This document shows positions 45,833-54,654 of a stretch of DNA of 64,000 nt, piece after piece. Under the pieces are notes generated by a model. That model did not search any database. It saw only the letters and a list, made by a program, of their open reading frames with translations, and was not told the origin of the DNA. The translations under genes and the position numbers were made by a program. Origin of the DNA: a phage; assembly GCA_022520065.1 (NCBI GenBank), contig GCA_022520065.1_3942.1, one strand, 5' to 3'. Within the stretch, counting starts at the first letter, position 1. Every line of letters begins with the position of its first letter.

Positions 45833-45896
45833 TTTTGTGGTAGTCGTGTGCGCCCGTTTCATTACAGTTTTGCCAAAAATATTTTTAAAATTTTTC

Positions 45897-45925
45897 TTGA
45901 CTCTTTGAGTGTGGTTATCTAATAT
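45897..45925 (+). promoter_or_regulatory. type-A cassette promoter TTGACT-N17-TAATAT
   Basis: Followed by GC hairpin 45936-45956 and conserved leader ending GGAGATTCAAAAATG. Confidence 0.5.
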
Positions 45926-45988
45926 TTGCATCAACGGGGAGGGAATGACCTTCCCCACTAAATAAAGTCCTAAACTGGAGATTCAAAA

Positions 45989-46369
45989 ATGGCATATCGT
46001 GCACCTAAATTCATCAACAAAGACAACTTTCGCAACGCACTGGAGAAGTCACTTGATGAAAATTTTAAAGGTAACATTATCGTTGTTCACGCATTCAATT
46101 TTAAGTATGATATCAACGGGAATAAAATCAACCATTACACGGCAACCATGATAGATGGTACACTTTCAAGTGAAAAAGCCGTACTAAATGCACTTGCAGG
46201 ACGTGGAAAAAACCTGATAAGATGTGATAAGAGACGTTATCAGGGCGGCGCATATGGTTATGATGATGCTATTTATCATCTTGAAAATATGGGCTATCAA
46301 GTAGAAAAAGCTGGAGCATCACAAATCATCGGTAGTGATGGTTATGTAACTATCTTCAAAATTAACTAA
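45989..46369 (+). CDS. hypothetical small protein (array gene 1)
   Basis: ORF behind type-A cassette. Confidence 0.5.
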   Translation: MAYRAPKFINKDNFRNALEKSLDENFKGNIIVVHAFNFKYDINGNKINHYTATMIDGTLSSEKAVLNALAGRGKNLIRCDKRRYQGGAYGYDDAIYHLENMGYQVEKAGASQIIGSDGYVTIFKIN

Positions 46370-46458
46370 TAAAGTACTTTACAAGGGGCTTATAGTTCGA
46401 TAAAGTAAGCCCCAGATAAAGAGCTTTACTACTCAATCCTAAATTGGAGAACTAAAAA

Positions 46459-46716
46459 ATGGCTATTATCAAAAACGTTGTAATTGCTGCAAAAACTCGT
46501 GATGACGCTCGCGTTATGGCTAAAAAGTTATGCGGGAAAGTGGTTGACAACGGAAAAACATCTGCTGTAAGATGGGGCGTAAAGGCTGATAAACATTTAA
46601 TCTTAAAACATAGTTCAAATAACCTTTTTAAAGGTGTAAAATCACTCGGTAAAGTGAATGTTTTCACTAAACAAGGTTACAAAATGCACTTATCATTAAC
46701 TGGCAATTTAATCTGA
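46459..46716 (+). CDS. hypothetical small protein (array gene 2)
   Basis: ORF behind type-B cassette (hairpin 46385-46413). Confidence 0.5.
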   Translation: MAIIKNVVIAAKTRDDARVMAKKLCGKVVDNGKTSAVRWGVKADKHLILKHSSNNLFKGVKSLGKVNVFTKQGYKMHLSLTGNLI

Positions 46717-46804
46717 TAAAGTACTTTACAGGGGGCTTAAAAGCTGATACCTTAAGCCCCAGATAAAGAGCTTTACCAATCAATCCTAAACTGGAGATTC
46801 AAAA

Positions 46805-47317
46805 ATGAAAACTGTAGACGCTACCTTTGAAGTTGTAAAAGAAAAATTCACTATTATTTATGAAGCTGTCAATTGCTTTGAAGCAAGCCATAATCTTGAT
46901 AATTGGGAATTTACAGATGACCATCAAGGTGGTGTGACGATTAAAAATCCTAGCTGTCAGCGTAATGAATTTAAATATGCAATCCCTTTACATTACAGCC
47001 TTAAACAGCTTTCAAGTGACTATGCAAAACAAGGCCGGGCAAATCCATCAAAAGAGGCTTACATCAGCTTACAGAAAGAACTAGAAAGAGATTTAGAGGC
47101 TTCAGAATATAACATTGCCGCGAAAGTTGTAGATGCAAATGGCAGCACTGTTTTAGAAAGTTTTTATATTGGTTATGCTTTCGATTGGTGCTACAGTGAC
47201 GGCGATGATTTAGATGACAGGCTAAAAGAGGAAGTGAACAACGCAGACGCAGAATCTGAAGTATTAGAGCGCTTGGAAGCATTAAAAGATTCAGTGATGA
47301 ATATCTTTAAGAACTAA
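46805..47317 (+). CDS. hypothetical protein (array gene 3)
   Basis: ORF behind type-B cassette (hairpin 46731-46760). Confidence 0.5.
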   Translation: MKTVDATFEVVKEKFTIIYEAVNCFEASHNLDNWEFTDDHQGGVTIKNPSCQRNEFKYAIPLHYSLKQLSSDYAKQGRANPSKEAYISLQKELERDLEASEYNIAAKVVDANGSTVLESFYIGYAFDWCYSDGDDLDDRLKEEVNNADAESEVLERLEALKDSVMNIFKN

Positions 47318-47408
47318 ATAGATTTCTTTACACGGGGCTAACAAGCGGATATGATAGCCCCAGATAAAGAGATTTATCAAATTAACCCTTAAACTAGGAG
47401 ATTCAAAA

Positions 47409-47705
47409 ATGAAATTATCAAATAAAGTTAGGGAAAACCTTAGTAAATTACTCAATAAAATTGATTTTATTGAGACATCAAGAAATAGTCATGATGTTAT
47501 GGAATGGTTACATGGCAAAATAAAAGGCCGTCGTGTAGTAATTTGCTTATGGAATAGTTGCAGGGAGTATAAAAAACCTGTATTGCAAGTTAATATATAC
47601 GATGATACTTTTAAAAGTCCTGTAAAGTCTAAAAGCGATTTATTAGAATCTTATGAGATATCTGTAAGTGGCAAGGTATCACGTAAAGAGGAAACACCAT
47701 GTTAA
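47409..47705 (+). CDS. hypothetical small protein (array gene 4)
   Basis: ORF behind type-B cassette (hairpin 47334-47361). Confidence 0.5.
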   Translation: MKLSNKVRENLSKLLNKIDFIETSRNSHDVMEWLHGKIKGRRVVICLWNSCREYKKPVLQVNIYDDTFKSPVKSKSDLLESYEISVSGKVSRKEETPC

Positions 47706-48031
47706 TAACTGGCATTACTGCAATCATAGCCATTATAGCACTTTATAAGGCATATAAAGCCTATAATCTGGCAAGTAAGGCAATCACGCAGCAGGCTAGC
47801 AATAACCTTGTAGGGAGCTTTCTGGAGCGTTTAAGCGATGAGCAAATAAAGCGGCTAGAGATGAGCTTCAGATATAAAGCGAAAACCTATCAGATAAGTG
47901 ACATCTTCAAAGATGATTTTCAGTTAGTCGATGATTATAATTCTCTGATAAATGCTTTAAATGTCAGTGACTTAAAAAACTACTACGCTGTAATTGTTCA
48001 AGAATTGAGCAAACGAAAACAAAACTGTTGA
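47699..48031 (+). CDS. hypothetical small membrane-anchored protein (array gene 5)
   Basis: Hydrophobic N-terminus; AGAGGA RBS; overlaps gene 4 stop. Confidence 0.45.
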   Translation: MLITGITAIIAIIALYKAYKAYNLASKAITQQASNNLVGSFLERLSDEQIKRLEMSFRYKAKTYQISDIFKDDFQLVDDYNSLINALNVSDLKNYYAVIVQELSKRKQNC

Positions 48032-48056
48032 TACTGGTTTTTAGATAGATTAAATT
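48028..48056 (+). promoter_or_regulatory. type-A cassette promoter TTGATA-N17-TAAATT
   Basis: Followed by hairpin 48067-48086. Confidence 0.45.
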
Positions 48057-48119
48057 ACACATCAACGGGGAGGAAATGACCTCCCCCACTAAATAAAGTC
48101 CTAAACTGGAGATTCTAGA

Positions 48120-48392
48120 ATGTATACTACTAACAACGGTCGCACTTTAAATGTCACACTACGTCACTATGTAGATGGTGTCATGCACTTTGAAGATTTA
48201 CAAGCTGAACAACATATCTTAGATTGGCAAGTAGCAGGACTCCAAAAAACTGCTACGGGATACGGTAAAAAGATTCCAACCAGTTGGAAAGTTCACTATG
48301 AAGGACGTTTGCGCAGAATTTATCAAGATGTGCAAAGCAATAGCGCATCGAGTTACATTATAGTAAAAGGCAAAAAACTGCATTTAACGTAA
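48120..48392 (+). CDS. hypothetical small protein (array gene 6)
   Basis: ORF behind type-A cassette. Confidence 0.5.
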   Translation: MYTTNNGRTLNVTLRHYVDGVMHFEDLQAEQHILDWQVAGLQKTATGYGKKIPTSWKVHYEGRLRRIYQDVQSNSASSYIIVKGKKLHLT

Positions 48393-48478
48393 AGTACTTT
48401 ACAAGGGGCTTATAGTTCGATAAAGTAAGCCCCAGATAAAGAGCTTTACCACTCAATCCTAAATTGGAGAACTTAAAA

Positions 48479-48883
48479 ATGGCTATTAATAACCGTGAAT
48501 TATCAATCTTAAAAGCACGTTTGACCGTTAATCGAATCAACATTATGACATCATCAGCGCCTGATGAGACATTGCACAACATTATCGGAAAGATTCAAAG
48601 CGTTATTTTAGACGTTGAAAACGTAAAAAGCTCATTGGCTGACGTTGCAGCAGGTATCACACTAGATGGCGCACAATATGAAATGTCCGACATGTTAGGC
48701 AAATCAAAGGTAATGAATAAAGAGCTTGATTTAAAGATGTTCCGATTTGCTGTTAAAGTATGGCTATCCGTCGAGTATGACGCTAATTTTGCAATCGCTG
48801 ATTTCTTTGCCACTTGGTTACAACGTAATTTGACAAATCACGATTTTCGTGATGTCTGCGATGCAATTTATGCAGAACTCTAA
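48479..48883 (+). CDS. hypothetical protein (array gene 7)
   Basis: Track start 48464 is TTG; cassette-conserved ATG at 48479; type-B hairpin 48405-48433. Confidence 0.5.
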   Translation: MAINNRELSILKARLTVNRINIMTSSAPDETLHNIIGKIQSVILDVENVKSSLADVAAGITLDGAQYEMSDMLGKSKVMNKELDLKMFRFAVKVWLSVEYDANFAIADFFATWLQRNLTNHDFRDVCDAIYAEL

Positions 48884-48892
48884 AAAATTTTG

Positions 48893-48921
48893 TTGACACT
48901 GGTTTTTAGATAGATTAAATT
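48893..48921 (+). promoter_or_regulatory. type-A cassette promoter TTGACA-N17-TAAATT
   Basis: Followed by hairpin 48932-48951. Confidence 0.5.
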
Positions 48922-48984
48922 ACACATCAACGGGGAGGAAATGACCTCCCCCACTAAATAAAGTCCTAAACTGGAGATTCAAAA

Positions 48985-49188
48985 ATGGCTATTATTAATG
49001 GTTTAACCATTGAAACTACACACATCAAAGATATCAAAGTTGGCGATATAGTCCTTTCCCACGGCGTAGAAAAAACTGTCACTGCAAAGGATATCAAAGA
49101 GGATTTTTTCATGGGTAGGACTCTCTTCGGTGATTCTTATTGCTTAGGCTATCTTGCAGTTTTAAAAGTTGTCAAAAATAACAAATAA
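48985..49188 (+). CDS. hypothetical small protein (array gene 8)
   Basis: ORF behind type-A cassette. Confidence 0.5.
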   Translation: MAIINGLTIETTHIKDIKVGDIVLSHGVEKTVTAKDIKEDFFMGRTLFGDSYCLGYLAVLKVVKNNK

Positions 49189-49273
49189 AGTACTTTACAA
49201 GGGGCTTAAAAGTTGATAACTTAAGCCTCAGATAAAGAGCTTTACCACTAAATCCTAAACTGGAGATTCAAAA

Positions 49274-49816
49274 ATGAAATGTTATCACGGAACTACTCAA
49301 GAAAATTTCCTCAACCTGATTAATAACGGTGATAAACCATCAGGCGCATGGAATTGTTCGGATATGGACGGCAATTTTTACGTGTATCCAGAAAATAAAA
49401 TCTATGGCGACGATGATGAAGAGATAACATCGGAGGGCATTCAGCAAGCTCTAGGGAACGCCACTATTACGGCGGCCTTCCAGATGAAAACCCAAAATAT
49501 TGTTATCTTAGAACTCGATATTCCAGATGATGAGCTAAATGATGATTATTCTTGTGATAATATGTCGAGTGTAGCAAGTTTTACAGAGTACTTTGATGTA
49601 AACTGGATTAAAAAGGTCTATACAACAGAGTTTAACGCTATGTATTCGCCTTTTTGTCTTCCTTCACTGGATAACCCAAATATGAACTATCTTGATGAGA
49701 CATTAGAACTACTTGCTAAAAGTGTTCAACAGTCGGACAGTATTCAGGTTTTTTGTGACATCATGGATACACTGACAGGAAACATCGCAGAAGAGGATTT
49801 AAAGAGCTTTTTCTAA
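49274..49816 (+). CDS. hypothetical acidic protein (array gene 9)
   Basis: ORF behind type-B cassette (hairpin 49201-49229). Confidence 0.5.
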   Translation: MKCYHGTTQENFLNLINNGDKPSGAWNCSDMDGNFYVYPENKIYGDDDEEITSEGIQQALGNATITAAFQMKTQNIVILELDIPDDELNDDYSCDNMSSVASFTEYFDVNWIKKVYTTEFNAMYSPFCLPSLDNPNMNYLDETLELLAKSVQQSDSIQVFCDIMDTLTGNIAEEDLKSFF

Positions 49817-49848
49817 AAACCTATGCAATCACCTTATAAACACTATTT

Positions 49849-49868
49849 AGCCCCTTACAGGGGCTTTT
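49849..49868 (+). terminator. intrinsic terminator-like hairpin
   Basis: AGCCCC-ttaca-GGGGCT followed by TTTT. Confidence 0.45.
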
Positions 49869-49882
49869 GGGAGGCTTAAATC

Positions 49883-50116
49883 ATGCTTACAACCGTTTAC
49901 CTCATCCTTTCTATTTGTAACGGTCATTCATGCGATTTTAAAGGGCTTGAAGAGTTTACAGGAAGTAAAGAAAATGCTATTCAAGTTTGCCAGATAGCAA
50001 GACAAGACTATCCCGCTAGTGATGATATACAATGTTACTTTAAGACAGAAGATGAAGACGGTATCTATTTTGACAGCGTAGATGGTCAGTATGAAATTAT
50101 CATTGAAAAAGACTAG
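49883..50116 (+). CDS. hypothetical small protein (array gene 10)
   Basis: GGGAGG RBS 8 nt upstream of ATG. Confidence 0.45.
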   Translation: MLTTVYLILSICNGHSCDFKGLEEFTGSKENAIQVCQIARQDYPASDDIQCYFKTEDEDGIYFDSVDGQYEIIIEKD

Positions 50117-50142
50117 ACAAGCCTGATAAAAATCTGTAAATT
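50114..50142 (+). promoter_or_regulatory. type-A cassette promoter TAGACA-N17-TAAATT
   Basis: Followed by hairpin 50153-50173. Confidence 0.4.
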
Positions 50143-50207
50143 GTCAATCAACGGGGAGGGAATGACCTTCCCCACTAAGTACAATCCTTAAACTAGGAGA
50201 TTCAAAA

Positions 50208-50549
50208 ATGGCTTATGTAACCGTAATTACCGATAAAGAAAATTCATCTTGGTCAACTCAAGTAAGTGATAAGATGTCACCTATGCAGTGCCTAAAATAC
50301 TTTGAACAGTGGAACAAAGGCGAGGACACAAGCCCCTTTCAAGTGATGCAGATTATCCATGTAGATAACGAAGGGAATAAAACGGTTTTAAATAGTGAGT
50401 ACTACGCAAGCCATTTTGAAACGAGAAGTAAAACAATGAAGCTTTTACGTGAATCCGGTTATGCCCATATCGCCGCGTTAATCTGGGATGACCTGCTAAA
50501 AAACCAACGTATCAGCTATGTAAAACCTGAAAAAATATTCATCAGTTAA
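50208..50549 (+). CDS. hypothetical protein (array gene 11)
   Basis: ORF behind type-A cassette. Confidence 0.5.
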   Translation: MAYVTVITDKENSSWSTQVSDKMSPMQCLKYFEQWNKGEDTSPFQVMQIIHVDNEGNKTVLNSEYYASHFETRSKTMKLLRESGYAHIAALIWDDLLKNQRISYVKPEKIFIS

Positions 50550-50581
50550 TCAATAACTTACAAAAAACTTTTAAAAAAATG

Positions 50582-50600
50582 TTGACAATACCCCTTGACA
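50582..50600 (+). promoter_or_regulatory. tandem TTGACA element (weaker copy of 15666/61883 motif)
   Basis: GTTGACAAtaccccTTGACA. Confidence 0.3.
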
Positions 50601-50678
50601 TTGGTAACTTTGTTCGAGGGGGTTTATCTAAAAGGGATTCACTTAAAAGATTCTTTATAGATAAGCTCAAAAAATTAC

Positions 50679-50708
50679 TTGCAATCAACTATCAAAACAA
50701 GTAAATTA
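50679..50708 (+). promoter_or_regulatory. type-A cassette promoter TTGCAA-N17-TAAATT
   Basis: Followed by degenerate hairpin 50718-50737. Confidence 0.4.
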
Positions 50709-50769
50709 CTAATCAACGGGAAGGCAATAACCTCCCCACTAAATAAAGTCCTAAACTGGAGATTCTAAA

Positions 50770-51300
50770 ATGAACAAATTTCAAGCTATCAACTTCATTC
50801 GTTCAAATGCTGTAATGTCTAAGCCTGTAAAAGATACATACGAATTCCGTTGTAATGGGGTACATTTCGCAACAATCACCAAATCAGAAAACGGGGCTTA
50901 TTACGTTCATCGTCGTAATGTTTCAACCGTTGTAGTCTCTCACTTTATGCAAGCTGTAGCGGAATTATTACCGTTATTCTTAGAGATTTACTTAGATGAG
51001 TGTAAAAACGTTCACAACCACGTTAAAAGCCTTTTAAACGGTTATAAAATGGCTTATGAACGCTCTATCAAGTCCTTAAACAAGTTTTACAATGCACCTG
51101 CAAATACTGTTTCAATGGCTTATGATGTAAACGGTGAGTTAGTTAGTCTCTTTGAAGTGGAAGAAATTAAGCTGTATAATTTACGTCCTAGTGGTTACTC
51201 TAAGACTCTTGGTGAAGGTTTATCCTTTAATATCAAGAACTTAGAAAAAACTTTAAAAGACATTGAAAAAGATATTGACGAGACAATCAAAAGTCTGTAA
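50770..51300 (+). CDS. hypothetical protein (array gene 12)
   Basis: ORF behind type-A cassette. Confidence 0.5.
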   Translation: MNKFQAINFIRSNAVMSKPVKDTYEFRCNGVHFATITKSENGAYYVHRRNVSTVVVSHFMQAVAELLPLFLEIYLDECKNVHNHVKSLLNGYKMAYERSIKSLNKFYNAPANTVSMAYDVNGELVSLFEVEEIKLYNLRPSGYSKTLGEGLSFNIKNLEKTLKDIEKDIDETIKSL

Positions 51301-51303
51301 ATT
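51275..51303 (+). promoter_or_regulatory. type-A cassette promoter TTGACG-N17-TAAATT
   Basis: Lies within 3' end of gene 12; followed by hairpin 51314-51334. Confidence 0.45.
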
Positions 51304-51366
51304 GTCAATCAACGGGGAGGGAATGACCTTCCCCACTAAATAAAGTCCTAAACTGGAGTTATCAAG

Positions 51367-51630
51367 ATGGAAAACGTAGAATTAACCACACTTTTACAAA
51401 TTGCAACCGACAAAGAGAACGTAGCTTTATTTCACCGCATCGAAAGTGATTTGTTCAATGGTGAAATCATCAAAGAGTCTTACGAGGTTGTTGGATTCAA
51501 AGATGGTAAAACATTTGGATTCTTTGACCTCGAAAAAGGCAACGCTGTTACAAAATATGATGTTTTATCTTGTGAGATTCTTACAAGATACAACGAAAAA
51601 AGGCTTGCAACATACGCCAATATGCAGTAA
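51367..51630 (+). CDS. hypothetical small protein (array gene 13)
   Basis: ORF behind type-A cassette. Confidence 0.5.
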   Translation: MENVELTTLLQIATDKENVALFHRIESDLFNGEIIKESYEVVGFKDGKTFGFFDLEKGNAVTKYDVLSCEILTRYNEKRLATYANMQ

Positions 51631-51633
51631 ATT
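51605..51633 (+). promoter_or_regulatory. type-A cassette promoter TTGCAA-N17-TAAATT
   Basis: Followed by hairpin 51644-51661. Confidence 0.4.
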
Positions 51634-51696
51634 ACTAATCAACGGGAGGCGATAACCTCCCCACTAAATAAAACCCTTAAACTAGGAGATTCAAAA

Positions 51697-51945
51697 ATGG
51701 CAACTATCCGCGCTACTGTTAACGAGTTCGGTTTTTCCTCTCTGGATGTTAAATTTGACATTGCAGGCACTGATAACGCCTTTGAAATGGTGAAAGGTCT
51801 TATCAGTCAGACCATCAAAGATTATAATCCTTCGGATGAGTTCTGGGAGGAAACAAAACAAGAAGTTCTCAAGGATGGTTATACTTATCACTATTGGGGA
51901 GAAAAAATCGTCTCCCTGTACTACAACAAACAAGATTATAACTAA
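51697..51945 (+). CDS. hypothetical small protein (array gene 14)
   Basis: ORF behind type-A cassette. Confidence 0.5.
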   Translation: MATIRATVNEFGFSSLDVKFDIAGTDNAFEMVKGLISQTIKDYNPSDEFWEETKQEVLKDGYTYHYWGEKIVSLYYNKQDYN

Positions 51946-51983
51946 TCGACGCAGCGGGGCTAAATAGCCCCAGATACCCTAAC

Positions 51984-52008
51984 AGCCCCTTTAAATAGGG
52001 GCTTTTTT
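51984..52008 (+). terminator. strong intrinsic terminator closing the array
   Basis: AGCCCCT-ttaaat-AGGGGCT followed by TTTTTT; preceded by type-B-like hairpin 51956-51971. Confidence 0.65.
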
Positions 52009-52010
52009 AC

Positions 52011-53590
52011 GTCTATCCAATCCTTATACAATCCCTTTCCCTCACCTTTCCAGAATCTATCCACTGATTCGATAGAACCTATCTCATACCTTAAAAAGCA
52101 ATAACTCTATAGTCTACTCTGTAACCTCTTATCAAATCAACTTAAATAAAAGCCAATAACCCCAGAAAGGGGATGGCCCATTTAAACGCTCTATAAAGCT
52201 CTATAACAGCCTTATCAAACTGACTTAAGGGATTGCATTAACTCACCCTAAAAAGCCCTTTATAAAGCTTCCTAGAGCCTTAAAAGAATCTTATAAGGGT
52301 GTAAGCTTTATCATCTCGTTAGTATTCTTGTGAACTATTAAAAAGGGCTTGGTAGTGTCTTAAAAGTATGTTATAGGGGCTATAAAGTTACTTCAAAGTT
52401 ACGTAAAAGAGGCTATAAAGTTACGTAAATGCTAGCCCCCTTAACATTTTCTTAACAATTTCTTAACAATCCCTACATAGTTATGCTTTTAAGGCACTTG
52501 TTAGCAACTTGTTAGCCCCTTGTTAAATCTCTGTTAAGACCACGTAAAAGCCTTGTAAGAGTCTTTGACATAGCCTTAAAAGCTTCTGTAAAGCTCTATA
52601 AAGAGGTGTCTGTACAGTTGGGGGATAGATACTAGGAAGAGACTTAAAAGAGCTTATAAAGAGCTATAGAGAGCTTTTAAAAGGTATGTTTAAGGAATCA
52701 CTAAGAGGGGAAAGGGAACGATAAGAAAGAGATAGTGACCATGTTAATAGCTTGTTAAAAAGATTAAACACTTGTTAGAAACTTGTTAATTATCTTAACA
52801 AAATAACTCTTAAAAATCAACTTGTTAGCTCTTGTTAGTCATCTGTTAAGGCTCTGTAAAGCCTATGTATCAACTGTTAAGAAACTGTTACACCATTGTT
52901 AGTTCTGTTAAGAAACTGTTAAGACCTTTGAAGAGTTGTTAAGAGCTTGAGAGAGTTGTTAAGAAATTGTTAAGGATATTTTAAAATTTTGCAAAGTACT
53001 TGTAAGGGAGCTGTTAAGGGCTACCAAGCAGATATACATCTTCTACAGATATTTTTGAGTTCCTTCAAAGACCCTAAAAAATGACTTGACAGTCCTATTT
53101 TATAAAAATTTTAAGATTCTGAATAATTACCTATACAGTCTTTTAAAAATACAGGTAGAAACAGGCTTATAAGATACCTTGTTAGTACCGTGTTAGACCT
53201 TGTGAGATAAGGTCTGTAAAGATATTCCTGTTAAGTTTGTTAAAACAGTCTATATAGAGGCTTAGTAGTACCTAGTGAACACCTATAGAGAGTGTCATAG
53301 CTAACCTAGAGATTAAGAGGTGTATAGGAGCTTCTAAGAGGGTATAGAGAGATGGTTAAGATGATTGTATAGGTTGTTTAGAAGGCTTGTTAGAAGAGTG
53401 TTTAGATGGCTATTTAGAAGGGCTATACAGAGGGCTATTAAGACCACTAGATAGTTACTAAGATACTATATAGTACTATATAACTATATATAGAGAGTAA
53501 GATTAAGAAGGTTGTTAAGAAGGGTAGATATTTTGTTCACATATAATGGTGACCCAGAGGTTGGGACAACCGATAAAATTTTATAAAAAT
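52011..53590. repeat. ORF-free island saturated with short degenerate direct repeats (YTGTTARR and related words)
   Basis: No ORF of 60 aa or more on either strand; dense block 52740-52990; tandem 11-mer 52449-52470; TATATA block 53461-53500. Confidence 0.7.
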
Positions 53591-53591
53591 T

Positions 53592-53615
53592 AAAAAGCCC
53601 CCAATTAAGGAGGCT
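53592..53615 (-). terminator. intrinsic terminator for leftward operon
   Basis: On - strand AGCCTCC-ttaatt-GGGGGCT followed by TTTTT; same hairpin design as 17118. Confidence 0.55.
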
Positions 53616-53627
53616 CTTAAGATATTT

Positions 53628-54176
53628 TTAAATCAGTGTTTCCAGAACTGTTTTTAGTGATGACTTGGTTGTCTGATAAAAATGAGTAAAGCCGTTGTTG
53701 TTATCAAATACCTGCATCATGATATCATCTCCCTTGATTGGGTACACTCGGATATCATAGTGAAAACCATTAAAGACACAAGAGCCATTACAGAATGCAC
53801 TAAAGTCATCCACTGAGATATACTCTTCATGTCCTGTGATTTTTATACAGATACCTTTACTCGGTCTCTTAGGATTAATATCTTCCATCACAGACATATT
53901 CTGTCCACCAAGAGATACCATAGTGACCACTTTACGGTTCTTCTGTCTAAAGTACATCTTAACTTTCTGTAAAGTGTCTTCATAGAACGGATAAGACTTC
54001 TCTACAAAGATTCCTTCAAGTGGCTCTTTACCATTTTCAACTTCTCTGTTATGCCGTACTGCAAAGATAATTTGTTCGAACCAGTCAAGATTTTCTTCGG
54101 AGAGTGCTTCCCGAACATCACTCCAATCAAGGACTAGGTAGTTACCTTCAACTTCTTTTAAGTTATCTTTTTCCAT
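53628..54176 (-). CDS. hypothetical protein
   Basis: Track start 54221 is TTG; first ATG at 54176. Confidence 0.45.
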   Translation of the reverse strand: MEKDNLKEVEGNYLVLDWSDVREALSEENLDWFEQIIFAVRHNREVENGKEPLEGIFVEKSYPFYEDTLQKVKMYFRQKNRKVVTMVSLGGQNMSVMEDINPKRPSKGICIKITGHEEYISVDDFSAFCNGSCVFNGFHYDIRVYPIKGDDIMMQVFDNNNGFTHFYQTTKSSLKTVLETLI

Positions 54177-54189
54177 ATCTATCACACCG

Positions 54190-54654
54190 TTATCGTAAAA
54201 CTTGGTAAGCTGGTACTGCAAACTTGTTGCTATTGTTCCTAATAAGGTCTTCTTCTGTTACTAAGAATGTAATCCCACATAAGTGCGTATAGTGGCTGTC
54301 ATACTCGAATATTTTAAGTAAGTATTTACCATCATGATAAACAGATTCTACTACACCTTTTGCAACAATCTTTCCAGTCTTGAAGTCTTTAAGATGGTAT
54401 GTATTACCAACTTTAGGGACTGTTTTCACTTCAGGTTCTTTTAGCTTCTCACTAGCTTCTACATCACCTAGTAAGTTAGAACTTTCAAAAGCTACATGTT
54501 TCATATATGCTTCTGAACATTCCCAGATAAAACAATGTACAAGAACCTTAGCAGCATGTCTTGAGCAATTCAACTCATCACAGATTTCTTTGTACATTTC
54601 ATCTTTAGTTGAATTGGTAAGCATTGCTTTTCGAACTGTTTCTTTAATTTTCAT
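54190..54654 (-). CDS. hypothetical protein
   Basis: 154-aa ORF, ATG start. Confidence 0.5.
   Translation of the reverse strand: MKIKETVRKAMLTNSTKDEMYKEICDELNCSRHAAKVLVHCFIWECSEAYMKHVAFESSNLLGDVEASEKLKEPEVKTVPKVGNTYHLKDFKTGKIVAKGVVESVYHDGKYLLKIFEYDSHYTHLCGITFLVTEEDLIRNNSNKFAVPAYQVLR

Follow-up and report, generated by a model that had tools for sequence, protein, structure and literature searches.

Why would a phage leave some 1.6 kb of its genome free of genes and crowd it with short repeated words? The question is posed by a 64,000-nt stretch of phage DNA (NCBI GenBank assembly GCA_022520065.1, contig GCA_022520065.1_3942.1), referred to here as the window, in which two convergent coding sequences (CDSs) flank an island at positions 51946–53627. 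The CDS on the + strand ends at 51945, its partner on the − strand occupies 53628..54221, and between them open reading frames (ORFs) of at least 60 aa are absent from both strands: the longest are 31–37 aa in length and begin with GTG or TTG. A first-pass annotation of this DNA had drawn attention to the gap of about 1.6 kb, whose existence is borne out, and had favoured an iteron-type replication origin, a proposal for which no support has emerged. The window belongs to a Felixounavirus genome, that of a Felix O1-like myovirus, and the island is, judging by homology, very probably the concatemer junction of its chromosome: 489 bp that close the right arm, one direct terminal repeat (DTR) of 591 bp and 602 bp that open the left arm. 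Taken as a whole, the best explanation is that of a terminal junction furnished with an array of short words that may serve packaging and end formation; its probability is estimated at roughly two in three.

Two probable chromosome ends in one island

A megablast comparison of the island with phage records returns 256 matches, 200 of which cover at least 80% of it and the best of which are 90–94% identical. Nearly all of the matching records derive from Felix O1-like phages of E. coli, Salmonella, Shigella and Citrobacter. Across the genera Felixounavirus, Suspvirus, Mooglevirus and Kolesnikvirus, the homologous convergent genes are parted by a gene-free gap of 1.44–1.81 kb, which measures 1622 bp in Felix O1, 1694 bp in SUSP1, 1743 bp in Mijalis, 1606 bp in Sf13, 1807 bp in Si3 and 1443 bp in M7. 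Between genera, conservation of the island as a whole, about 76% over its full length, matches that of the neighbouring genes. Positions described below as invariant are those unchanged in a MAFFT alignment of 12 genomes drawn from three genera, Felixounavirus, Suspvirus and Mooglevirus.

The identity of the island is already known from close relatives, in which the DTR has been mapped or annotated. For UAB_Phi87, mapping by Bal31 digestion combined with run-off sequencing gave a DTR of 608 bp (PMC4837284); the span equivalent to the window DTR amounts to 614 bp by blastn, the program used to compare the DTR with those of relatives. For Pr103Blw, DTR-type packaging with two 581-bp repeats has been reported on the basis of PhageTerm (PMC8303462): the record, MW481326, annotates a 'short direct terminal repeat' at 1–581 and 87841–88421, the two copies are identical, and the 581-bp sequence maps end to end on 52435–53025 of the window with 89.9% identity. 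A 613-bp DTR has been published for Ro111lw (PMC6454146), one of 570 bp is annotated as a repeat_region in HP1, a Citrobacter phage of the genus Mooglevirus, and short DTRs have been reported for Kolesnikvirus phages (PMC11984208). By homology to these mapped repeats, the DTR of the window would extend over 52435..53025. In the concatemer it would be preceded by the unique flank adjoining the right chromosome end (51946..52434), which is C-rich on the + strand, and followed by the unique flank adjoining the left chromosome end (53026..53627), which is purine-rich on the same strand.

Both boundaries coincide with the termini of deposited records, at least five in number, which stem from several laboratories. 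Those of Pr103Blw, Ro111lw, E9, H12 and HP1 start with GCCCCCTTAACA, the sequence found from window position 52435 onward, and those of Pr103Blw and HP1 end in GTTAAGGGCTACC, which finishes at window position 53025; the record of GE_vB_7A stops 2 nt short. In Ro111lw this right-edge motif ends at position 613, a value equal to the published length of the repeat. Each boundary lies within an invariant block: TAGCCCCCTT (52433..52442) straddles the left one, where the cut would fall at 52434/52435, and AGGGCTACCAAGCAG (53017..53031) straddles the right one, with a cut predicted at 53025/53026. The window holds only one copy of the DTR because assembly collapses the two chromosome ends, and assemblies of DTR phages are reported to contain the repeat once, often in the middle of a contig (PMC10438801). 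A cos site, in which cohesive ends arise from closely spaced nicks, was considered for the locus and rejected: the relatives carry exact, duplicated repeats of 444–625 bp at both ends of their records.

The locus had also been described as a convergent transcription terminus. The convergence is real, and its cause is the outward transcription of both arms toward two physical ends: the island has the appearance of a convergent gene-free gap because the genes of both arms run outward and are closed off by terminators before the ends are reached. The intrinsic terminators claimed to bracket the island are indeed present. On the + strand, a 7-bp stem with 5 GC pairs followed by TTTTTT (51984..52003) closes the right-arm gene cluster; a GGGGCTTTT block at 51998–52006 is invariant. 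On the − strand, a 10-bp stem that includes 5 GC pairs and leads into a T run (53593..53618, read from 53618 to 53593) closes the left-arm cluster, and the homologous structure is annotated as a terminator in ASO1A. The base composition of the island is only mildly biased towards AT, with a GC content of 0.345 compared with 0.385 for the whole window, and the GC skew reaches −0.39 in the right-arm flank and +0.48 in the left-arm flank.

Comparison of 13 genomes reveals no conserved ORF at the island locus, and the start codon of most candidates is GTG or TTG; on this ground the possibility that the island encodes small proteins was ruled out. No tRNA is detected by ARAGORN, whether in the whole window or at 12 related loci. 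Hence neither a conserved protein nor a tRNA, either of which had been named as an observation that would undo the reading of the island as a non-coding element, is found among the relatives. A search of Rfam at permissive E-values, up to 1, yields two sub-threshold chance matches within the island, neither near its gathering score. Some GenBank records annotate 'hypothetical proteins' of 30–55 aa in the DTR and its flank, among them those of phage E9 (241–1157 of its locus) and M7 (gp001 and gp002, 636–845). None of the corresponding ORFs, equivalent to window positions 52675–53590, is conserved across the 13 genomes compared, and such annotations are probably over-calls, that is, annotation artefacts.

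Short words in helical phase

The repeated words of the island stand well above chance, whereas a lack of enrichment over shuffles had been named in the first-pass annotation as a further refuting observation. Measured against 1000 dinucleotide-preserving shuffles of 51946–53627, the motif TGTTAR occurs 25 times on the + strand where 1.95 ± 1.37 copies are found in the shuffles (z = 16.9; shuffle maximum 7), and 5 further copies lie in the reverse orientation. TATAAAG (z = 6.1) and TATAGAG (z = 6.8) are likewise enriched, and positions under repeated 8-mers number 368 against 120 ± 18. The word CTTGTTAG is present in 7 copies in the island and in none on the same strand of the other 62 kb of the window. 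The first-pass annotation had counted more than 15 copies of YTGTTARR within 52740–52990: the array is there, the count is too high, as this interval holds 14 TGTTAR, 9 strict YTGTTARR and 15 TGTWAR words. The exact repeats that it listed are all in place. They comprise a tandem 11-mer, ttcttaacaat, in two copies at 52449–52470, two copies of ggctataaagttac at 52378–52391 and 52411–52424, and an alternating TATATA block at 53461..53500 in the left-end flank, of which 53475–53483 and 53487–53496 are invariant.

The words are not placed at random with respect to the double helix. Nineteen of the 25 TGTTAR copies are found inside the DTR, where they form an array on the + strand at 52499..53017, all in one orientation and with spacings that are mostly 10–11 or 20–22 bp. 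The pairwise phase coherence of these sites peaks at 10.2 bp with a value of 0.65, compared with 0.20 ± 0.09 under the null, and none of 2000 randomisations attains as high a value. A period of 10.2–10.3 bp recurs in five genomes (the window, Felix O1, SUSP1, Mijalis and M7, with p about 0.03 in the last). At a phasing of ∼10.3 bp the TGTTAR sites therefore lie on one face of the helix.

The array also bears the marks of selection. Motif cores in the DTR are 93% identical to those of Suspvirus and Mooglevirus, whereas non-core positions are 68% identical, and 13 of the 19 TGTTAR sites are intact in at least 11 of the 12 aligned genomes. All seven insertion or deletion (indel) events of at least 4 nt in the DTR involve 11, 21, 22 or 23 nt: the repeat grows and shrinks by whole units of ∼11 bp, and the phase is kept.

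At the extreme left edge of the DTR the motif is turned around. Three YTAACA words, which are inverted TGTTAR words and therefore assigned to the − strand, start at 52441, 52452 and 52463 (52441..52468), 11 bp apart; the exact ttcttaacaat tandem belongs to this set, and such left-edge words are present in 12 of 12 genomes in 2–5 units. They have a counterpart near the opposite edge, where a 29-nt arm on the + strand (52956..52984) is 90% complementary to 52441–52469; the inverted repeat formed between the two edges scores 43, compared with 14.9 ± 2.7 in shuffles. Read inward from either mature end, the sequence conforms to 5'-G(N0-4)GCCC(CC)TTAACA-N4-CTTAACA. The left-edge unit itself, TTTTCTTAACA, is present in two full copies at 52441–52470, and its TTAACA words number five in Si3 and four in heid. 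This varying copy number shows that units are actively gained and lost at the very end of the chromosome.

The Erwinia phage M7, a member of the genus Kolesnikvirus, serves as an outgroup in which the surroundings of the words have been largely rewritten. Only about 90 bp of its sequence can be aligned with the window DTR by blastn. An exact 444-bp repeat opens and closes its record and is set within a gene-free island of 1.44 kb, and the landmarks GATTTTGCAAAG and AGATATACA place the boundaries within 2 nt of the homologous positions. Across the M7 junction GTTAAGA occurs 16 times, inverted TTAACA words mark the left edge of the DTR, and the two edges of the DTR are again related by an inverted repeat, albeit one of different sequence, GAATGTTGCAGAGATGTTAA. 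Of the computational evidence for a functional array, this retention of word, layout and symmetry despite diverged surroundings is the strongest. No description of the phasing, the selective conservation of cores, the 11-bp indel quanta or the mirror-image ends was found in the literature.

The two flanks of the DTR possess word sets of their own, which run in one direction only. The flank on the side of the right arm contains words of the CTWWAAAG type, CTATAAAG and CTTAAAAG; CTAAAAAG, with at most one mismatch, occurs 8 times in the forward and 0 times in the reverse orientation, and a 21-nt block, CTTAAAAGAATCTTATAAGGG, is invariant at 52279–52299. The flank on the side of the left arm is populated by TGTTAAGA, TTTAGAAG and TATAGAG; here TGTTAAGA, with the same tolerance, occurs 9 times forward and 0 times in reverse, and a 19-nt block, CTATTTTATAAAAATTTTA, is invariant at 53095–53113. 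The sharp flip in GC skew across the island is a consequence of these one-directional words. A perfect TTGACA hexamer at 53087 precedes the CTATTTTATAAAAATTTTA block, and no properly spaced −10 hexamer was found there.

A wider survey of the words in IMG/VR recovers the triple-word pattern in 27 contigs, 25 of which are Felix O1-like. Confinement of the array to this lineage suggests a lineage-specific binder and not a general host factor. The two unrelated contigs (L027, 981–1040; L042, 7298–7345) display 3–4 closely spaced TGTTAAG words in intergenic, operator-like clusters, which could be the binding site of an unrelated regulator that employs the same word.

Repeats of another kind occur in the neighbouring early region of the window. 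Between small + strand genes at 45886–51701 lie two families of intergenic cassettes: the first consists of a GC hairpin, CAACGGGGAGG...CCTCCCCAC, followed by ACTAAATAAAGTCCTAAACTGGAGATTCAAAAATG, in 6–7 copies, and the second of TAAAGTACTTTACAAGGGGCTTA...AGCCCCAGATAAAGAGCTTTACCAC in 4–5 copies. Repeats of 57 bp and 39 bp that are reported for Felix O1 (PMC3185647) are similar to them, and the cassettes have the words CTTAAAAG, CTGTAAAG and GATAAAGAG in common with the island.

Packaging and the alternatives

Phasing, selective conservation, indel quanta and mirror-image ends compose the signature that is expected of a protein-binding array. What such an array would do is a separate question. 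The phased TGTTAR words may be cis-acting sites for the machinery that packages the DNA and forms its ends, with a role in terminase recognition, a proposal to which somewhat less than an even chance is assigned. The first-pass annotation had mentioned a packaging-type site, or an array for a phage DNA-binding protein, among its alternatives, and in this it came close to the reading that is now best supported.

Staggered nicking followed by fill-in is the classical T7-type scheme for generating a terminal repeat, and the layout of the island can be accommodated in it. The candidate binder would be a small-terminase-like DNA-recognition protein or another end-binding protein of the phage, which would occupy one helix face across the DTR and set the nuclease on the two invariant boundary blocks. 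Because the words near the right edge are mirrored by the inverted trio at the left edge, the same geometry, in opposite orientation, would be offered at both boundaries. The top strand might be nicked 5' of G52435 and the bottom strand 5' of the complement of C53025, and fill-in of the resulting 591-nt 5' overhangs would provide each packaged chromosome with a full DTR; the flanking words may also have a part in the process. This sequence of events is in keeping with what has been established for other phages: in DTR phages replication gives concatemers with a single repeat in each unit, specific sites are then cut by terminase, and synthesis of the second copy accompanies packaging (PMC10438801), and terminase recognition sites typically take the form of binding boxes adjoining the cut site (PMC3896407).

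A more far-reaching version may be put forward tentatively, as possible and rather unlikely. The array and its inverted copies might represent a new kind of packaging recognition element, a protein-coated scaffold of ∼0.5 kb that measures or delimits the terminal repeat. Through the candidate recognition protein, one and the same nuclease would be presented in mirror orientation to two invariant cut sites 591 bp apart. If this were true, the element would offer a way to study, at the level of sequence, how short terminal repeats come to be defined and duplicated.

Several points weigh against the packaging explanation. To our knowledge, the function of the word arrays at the T7 ends, the nearest parallel, is still unproven. 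The ends of the window's own phage are assigned by homology to relatives alone. The symmetry between the two ends is imperfect, as the cut position relative to the common TTAACA differs by 2 nt. Mean curvature in the DTR, estimated with the Bolshoy–Trifonov wedge model, is 10.7 degrees per 30 bp compared with 9.7 for the window at large and is unexceptional; bent DNA was also entertained as the cause of the phasing and ruled out, because the DTR has no unusual intrinsic curvature, and the model draws no support from a structural signature that does not depend on a protein. The terminase genes, that of the large terminase included, lie outside the window according to Felix O1 coordinates, and no small terminase has been identified in the genus (PMC4837284), so that the proposed binder is hypothetical. 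Finally, SEP1, another Felixounavirus, has been reported as a pac-type headful phage on the basis of PhageTerm (PMC13431587). This call conflicts with other reports and is treated here as an outlier in relation to one wet-lab mapping and several PhageTerm-based studies.

Among the other explanations, the one that survives best places the function of the words at the opposite end of the virion's journey. The arrays might bind a phage or host protein after ejection and either shield the DNA from RecBCD-type nucleases or pause or organize its entry, in the manner of the repeat-rich injection-stop region of the T5 terminal repeat. The DTR does bring the array within about 600 bp of both ends of the virion DNA, the two ends share the inward reading GCCC(CC)TTAACA-N4-CTTAACA that an end-binding protein would need, and the predominance of Felix O1-like contigs in IMG/VR (25 of 27) points to a phage-specific binder. 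On the other hand, no end-binding protein is known for Felix O1-like phages, and the flank arrays outside the DTR are each located at one end only. Sequence does not tell such a role apart from terminase recognition, and both could hold at once; protection or entry control as the function of the words is considered unlikely.

The replication origin preferred by the first-pass annotation is regarded as a slightly poorer prospect still. It would cast the phased direct repeats as iterons for a phage initiator and the TATATA block as an unwinding element. Placement of the repeats on one helix face, selection on their cores, the conserved alternating-AT block at 53461–53500 and the lack of genes are all compatible with it, and an origin adjoining a genome end could coexist with a terminal function. 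An origin does not predict, however, that the array should fill the DTR exactly and place inverted copies at the cleavage boundary. The repeat cores are 6–8 bp long, spaced at 10–11 bp in an array of ∼530 bp, whereas typical iterons span 17–22 bp, and the island, as seen above, is only mildly AT-rich. DnaA boxes are not enriched: two one-mismatch matches occur in 1.7 kb, and the whole window contains 83 where 98.5 are expected. The only matches of the eight flanking proteins are to PHROG families whose function is unknown; none contains a Pfam domain, and they show no initiator, helicase-loader or DNA-binding signature. A search of the literature library used found neither an origin placed at this locus nor a functional description of the repeats in Felix O1-like phages.

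It is very improbable that the array is a functionless by-product, generated by slippage that expands short words in a spacer buffering genes from the cut sites. Slippage would be consistent with a DTR whose length varies in 11-bp units and ranges from 444 to 625 bp among relatives, and with the 2–5 copies of the left-edge unit. It does not account for cores conserved at 93% against 68% in the spacers, for the 13 of 19 sites kept in at least 11 of 12 genomes, for the persistence of word and layout in M7, where the surroundings no longer align, or for an island as conserved as the neighbouring genes. Scarcely any credence can be given to a transcribed element, be it a non-coding RNA or a set of promoters and regulator sites for the flanking early genes: the words are strongly strand-asymmetric, TTGACA at 53087 adjoins a 19-nt invariant AT-rich block and three words recur in the neighbouring intergenic cassettes, but sigma-70-like promoter sites are at shuffle level (10 against 8.6 ± 2.9), Rfam offers no match, and the terminators of both flanking clusters point into the island, which leaves no gene downstream.

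Recognition of the island as a terminal junction has practical corollaries. It fixes the point at which the genome should be opened, with 52435 as base 1 and 52435–53025 repeated at the right end, and it cautions against gene calls inside the island of the sort made in several GenBank records. The apparent anomaly of a gene desert is explained without recourse to a new element; the island is ordinary apart from the overall order of the short words within the DTR. The DTR would be a concrete bait for the missing DNA-recognition component of the Felix O1-like packaging machinery. Phages of this group find wide use in the diagnostics and biocontrol of Salmonella and E. coli and are engineered to a growing extent.

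Comparison with known systems

The first-pass annotation knew of no described equivalent of the island, a claim that does not hold on two counts: the DTR of Felix O1-like phages has been mapped (PMC4837284) and annotated in GenBank, and the terminal repeat of T7, with its CCTAAAG arrays, has the same layout. By homology the island belongs to the DTR region of Ounavirinae genomes, and the sequence-level features tested, namely homology, conserved boundaries and genomic context, are all present. It shares with UAB_Phi87, Pr103Blw, Ro111lw, HP1 and M7 the same locus, the same boundary sequences GCCCCCTTAACA and GTTAAGGGCTACC and the same convergent genes, and its sequence is 76–96% identical to the corresponding loci of Felixounavirus, Suspvirus and Mooglevirus. 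The repeat measures 591 bp in the window and 444–625 bp in the relatives, with differences in 11-bp units, and the window copy is single and internal whereas those of the relatives are duplicated at the record ends; nothing essential differs.

The resemblance to iteron origins, such as lambda ori, P1 oriR and plasmid oriV, consists of clustered direct repeats in helical phase and an AT-rich block nearby. The window departs from that type in its cores of 6–8 bp, in the absence of an adjacent initiator signature and of DnaA-box enrichment, and in an array that is delimited by genome-end cleavage sites. The terminal repeat of T5 is a coding segment of about 10 kb; it includes a repeat-rich injection-stop segment, in which DnaA boxes have been reported. 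Phage T5 may be likened to the window in having a large, gene-free, repeat-dense segment tied to the terminal repeat. In the window, by contrast, the repeat-dense segment spans the DTR boundaries and DnaA boxes are not enriched.

Repeated binding boxes beside a cut site are found in lambda, where the R-sites of cosB accompany cosN, and in SPP1, with pacL and pacR, and in both cases there is a partial two-fold symmetry around the cuts, as there is here. Lambda has cohesive ends of 12 nt, and SPP1 has permuted ends produced by headful packaging. The likeness would lie in a recognition subunit that is seated on repeated boxes and a nuclease that cuts an adjacent, specific site (PMC3896407). The differences are that in the window two cuts about 591 bp apart would yield an exact DTR, that the array is far larger, with 19 or more boxes, and that no small terminase is known for the window's genus.

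The closest mechanistic analogue, judged by its layout, is the T7 junction, which is an analogue and not a member of the same family. The terminal arrays of T7 were reportedly named SRL and SRR by Dunn and Studier, and a literature search for these arrays found no paper describing them. Inspection of the T7 ends reveals a DTR of 160 bp and 13 copies of CCTAAAG; TAAAG occurs 20 times forward and 3 times in reverse, partly with a 13-bp period, inside the repeat and on both sides of it. The two junctions have no sequence homology beyond a chance-level match of 15 nt (E = 0.009): window positions 52637–52651 share AAGAGACTTAAAAGA exactly with a site immediately upstream of promoter A1 at the left end of T7, with no wider homology, and the match is probably due to chance, given the common flavour of the words. 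The T7 repeat is 3.7 times shorter, its words follow a period of 13 bp compared with 10.3 bp here, and no comparable inverted set was seen at the opposite edge of the T7 junction. Transcription is organized differently as well: promoters A0, phiOL, phiOR and A1–A3 lie near the T7 ends and the genes of its left end run inward, whereas those of the window run outward and end at terminators. T7, a podovirus, has an RNA polymerase of its own, and the promoter signal of the window is not above chance; we know of no single-subunit RNA polymerase in Felix O1-like phages. What the two junctions have in common is a short, exact DTR set in a non-coding stretch and accompanied by 6–8-bp words, mostly in one orientation, inside the repeat and in both flanks. 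The flavour of the words is similar, xTAAAG or xTTAAG, and in both systems one copy of the repeat would be present per concatemer unit, the second being made during packaging (PMC10438801).

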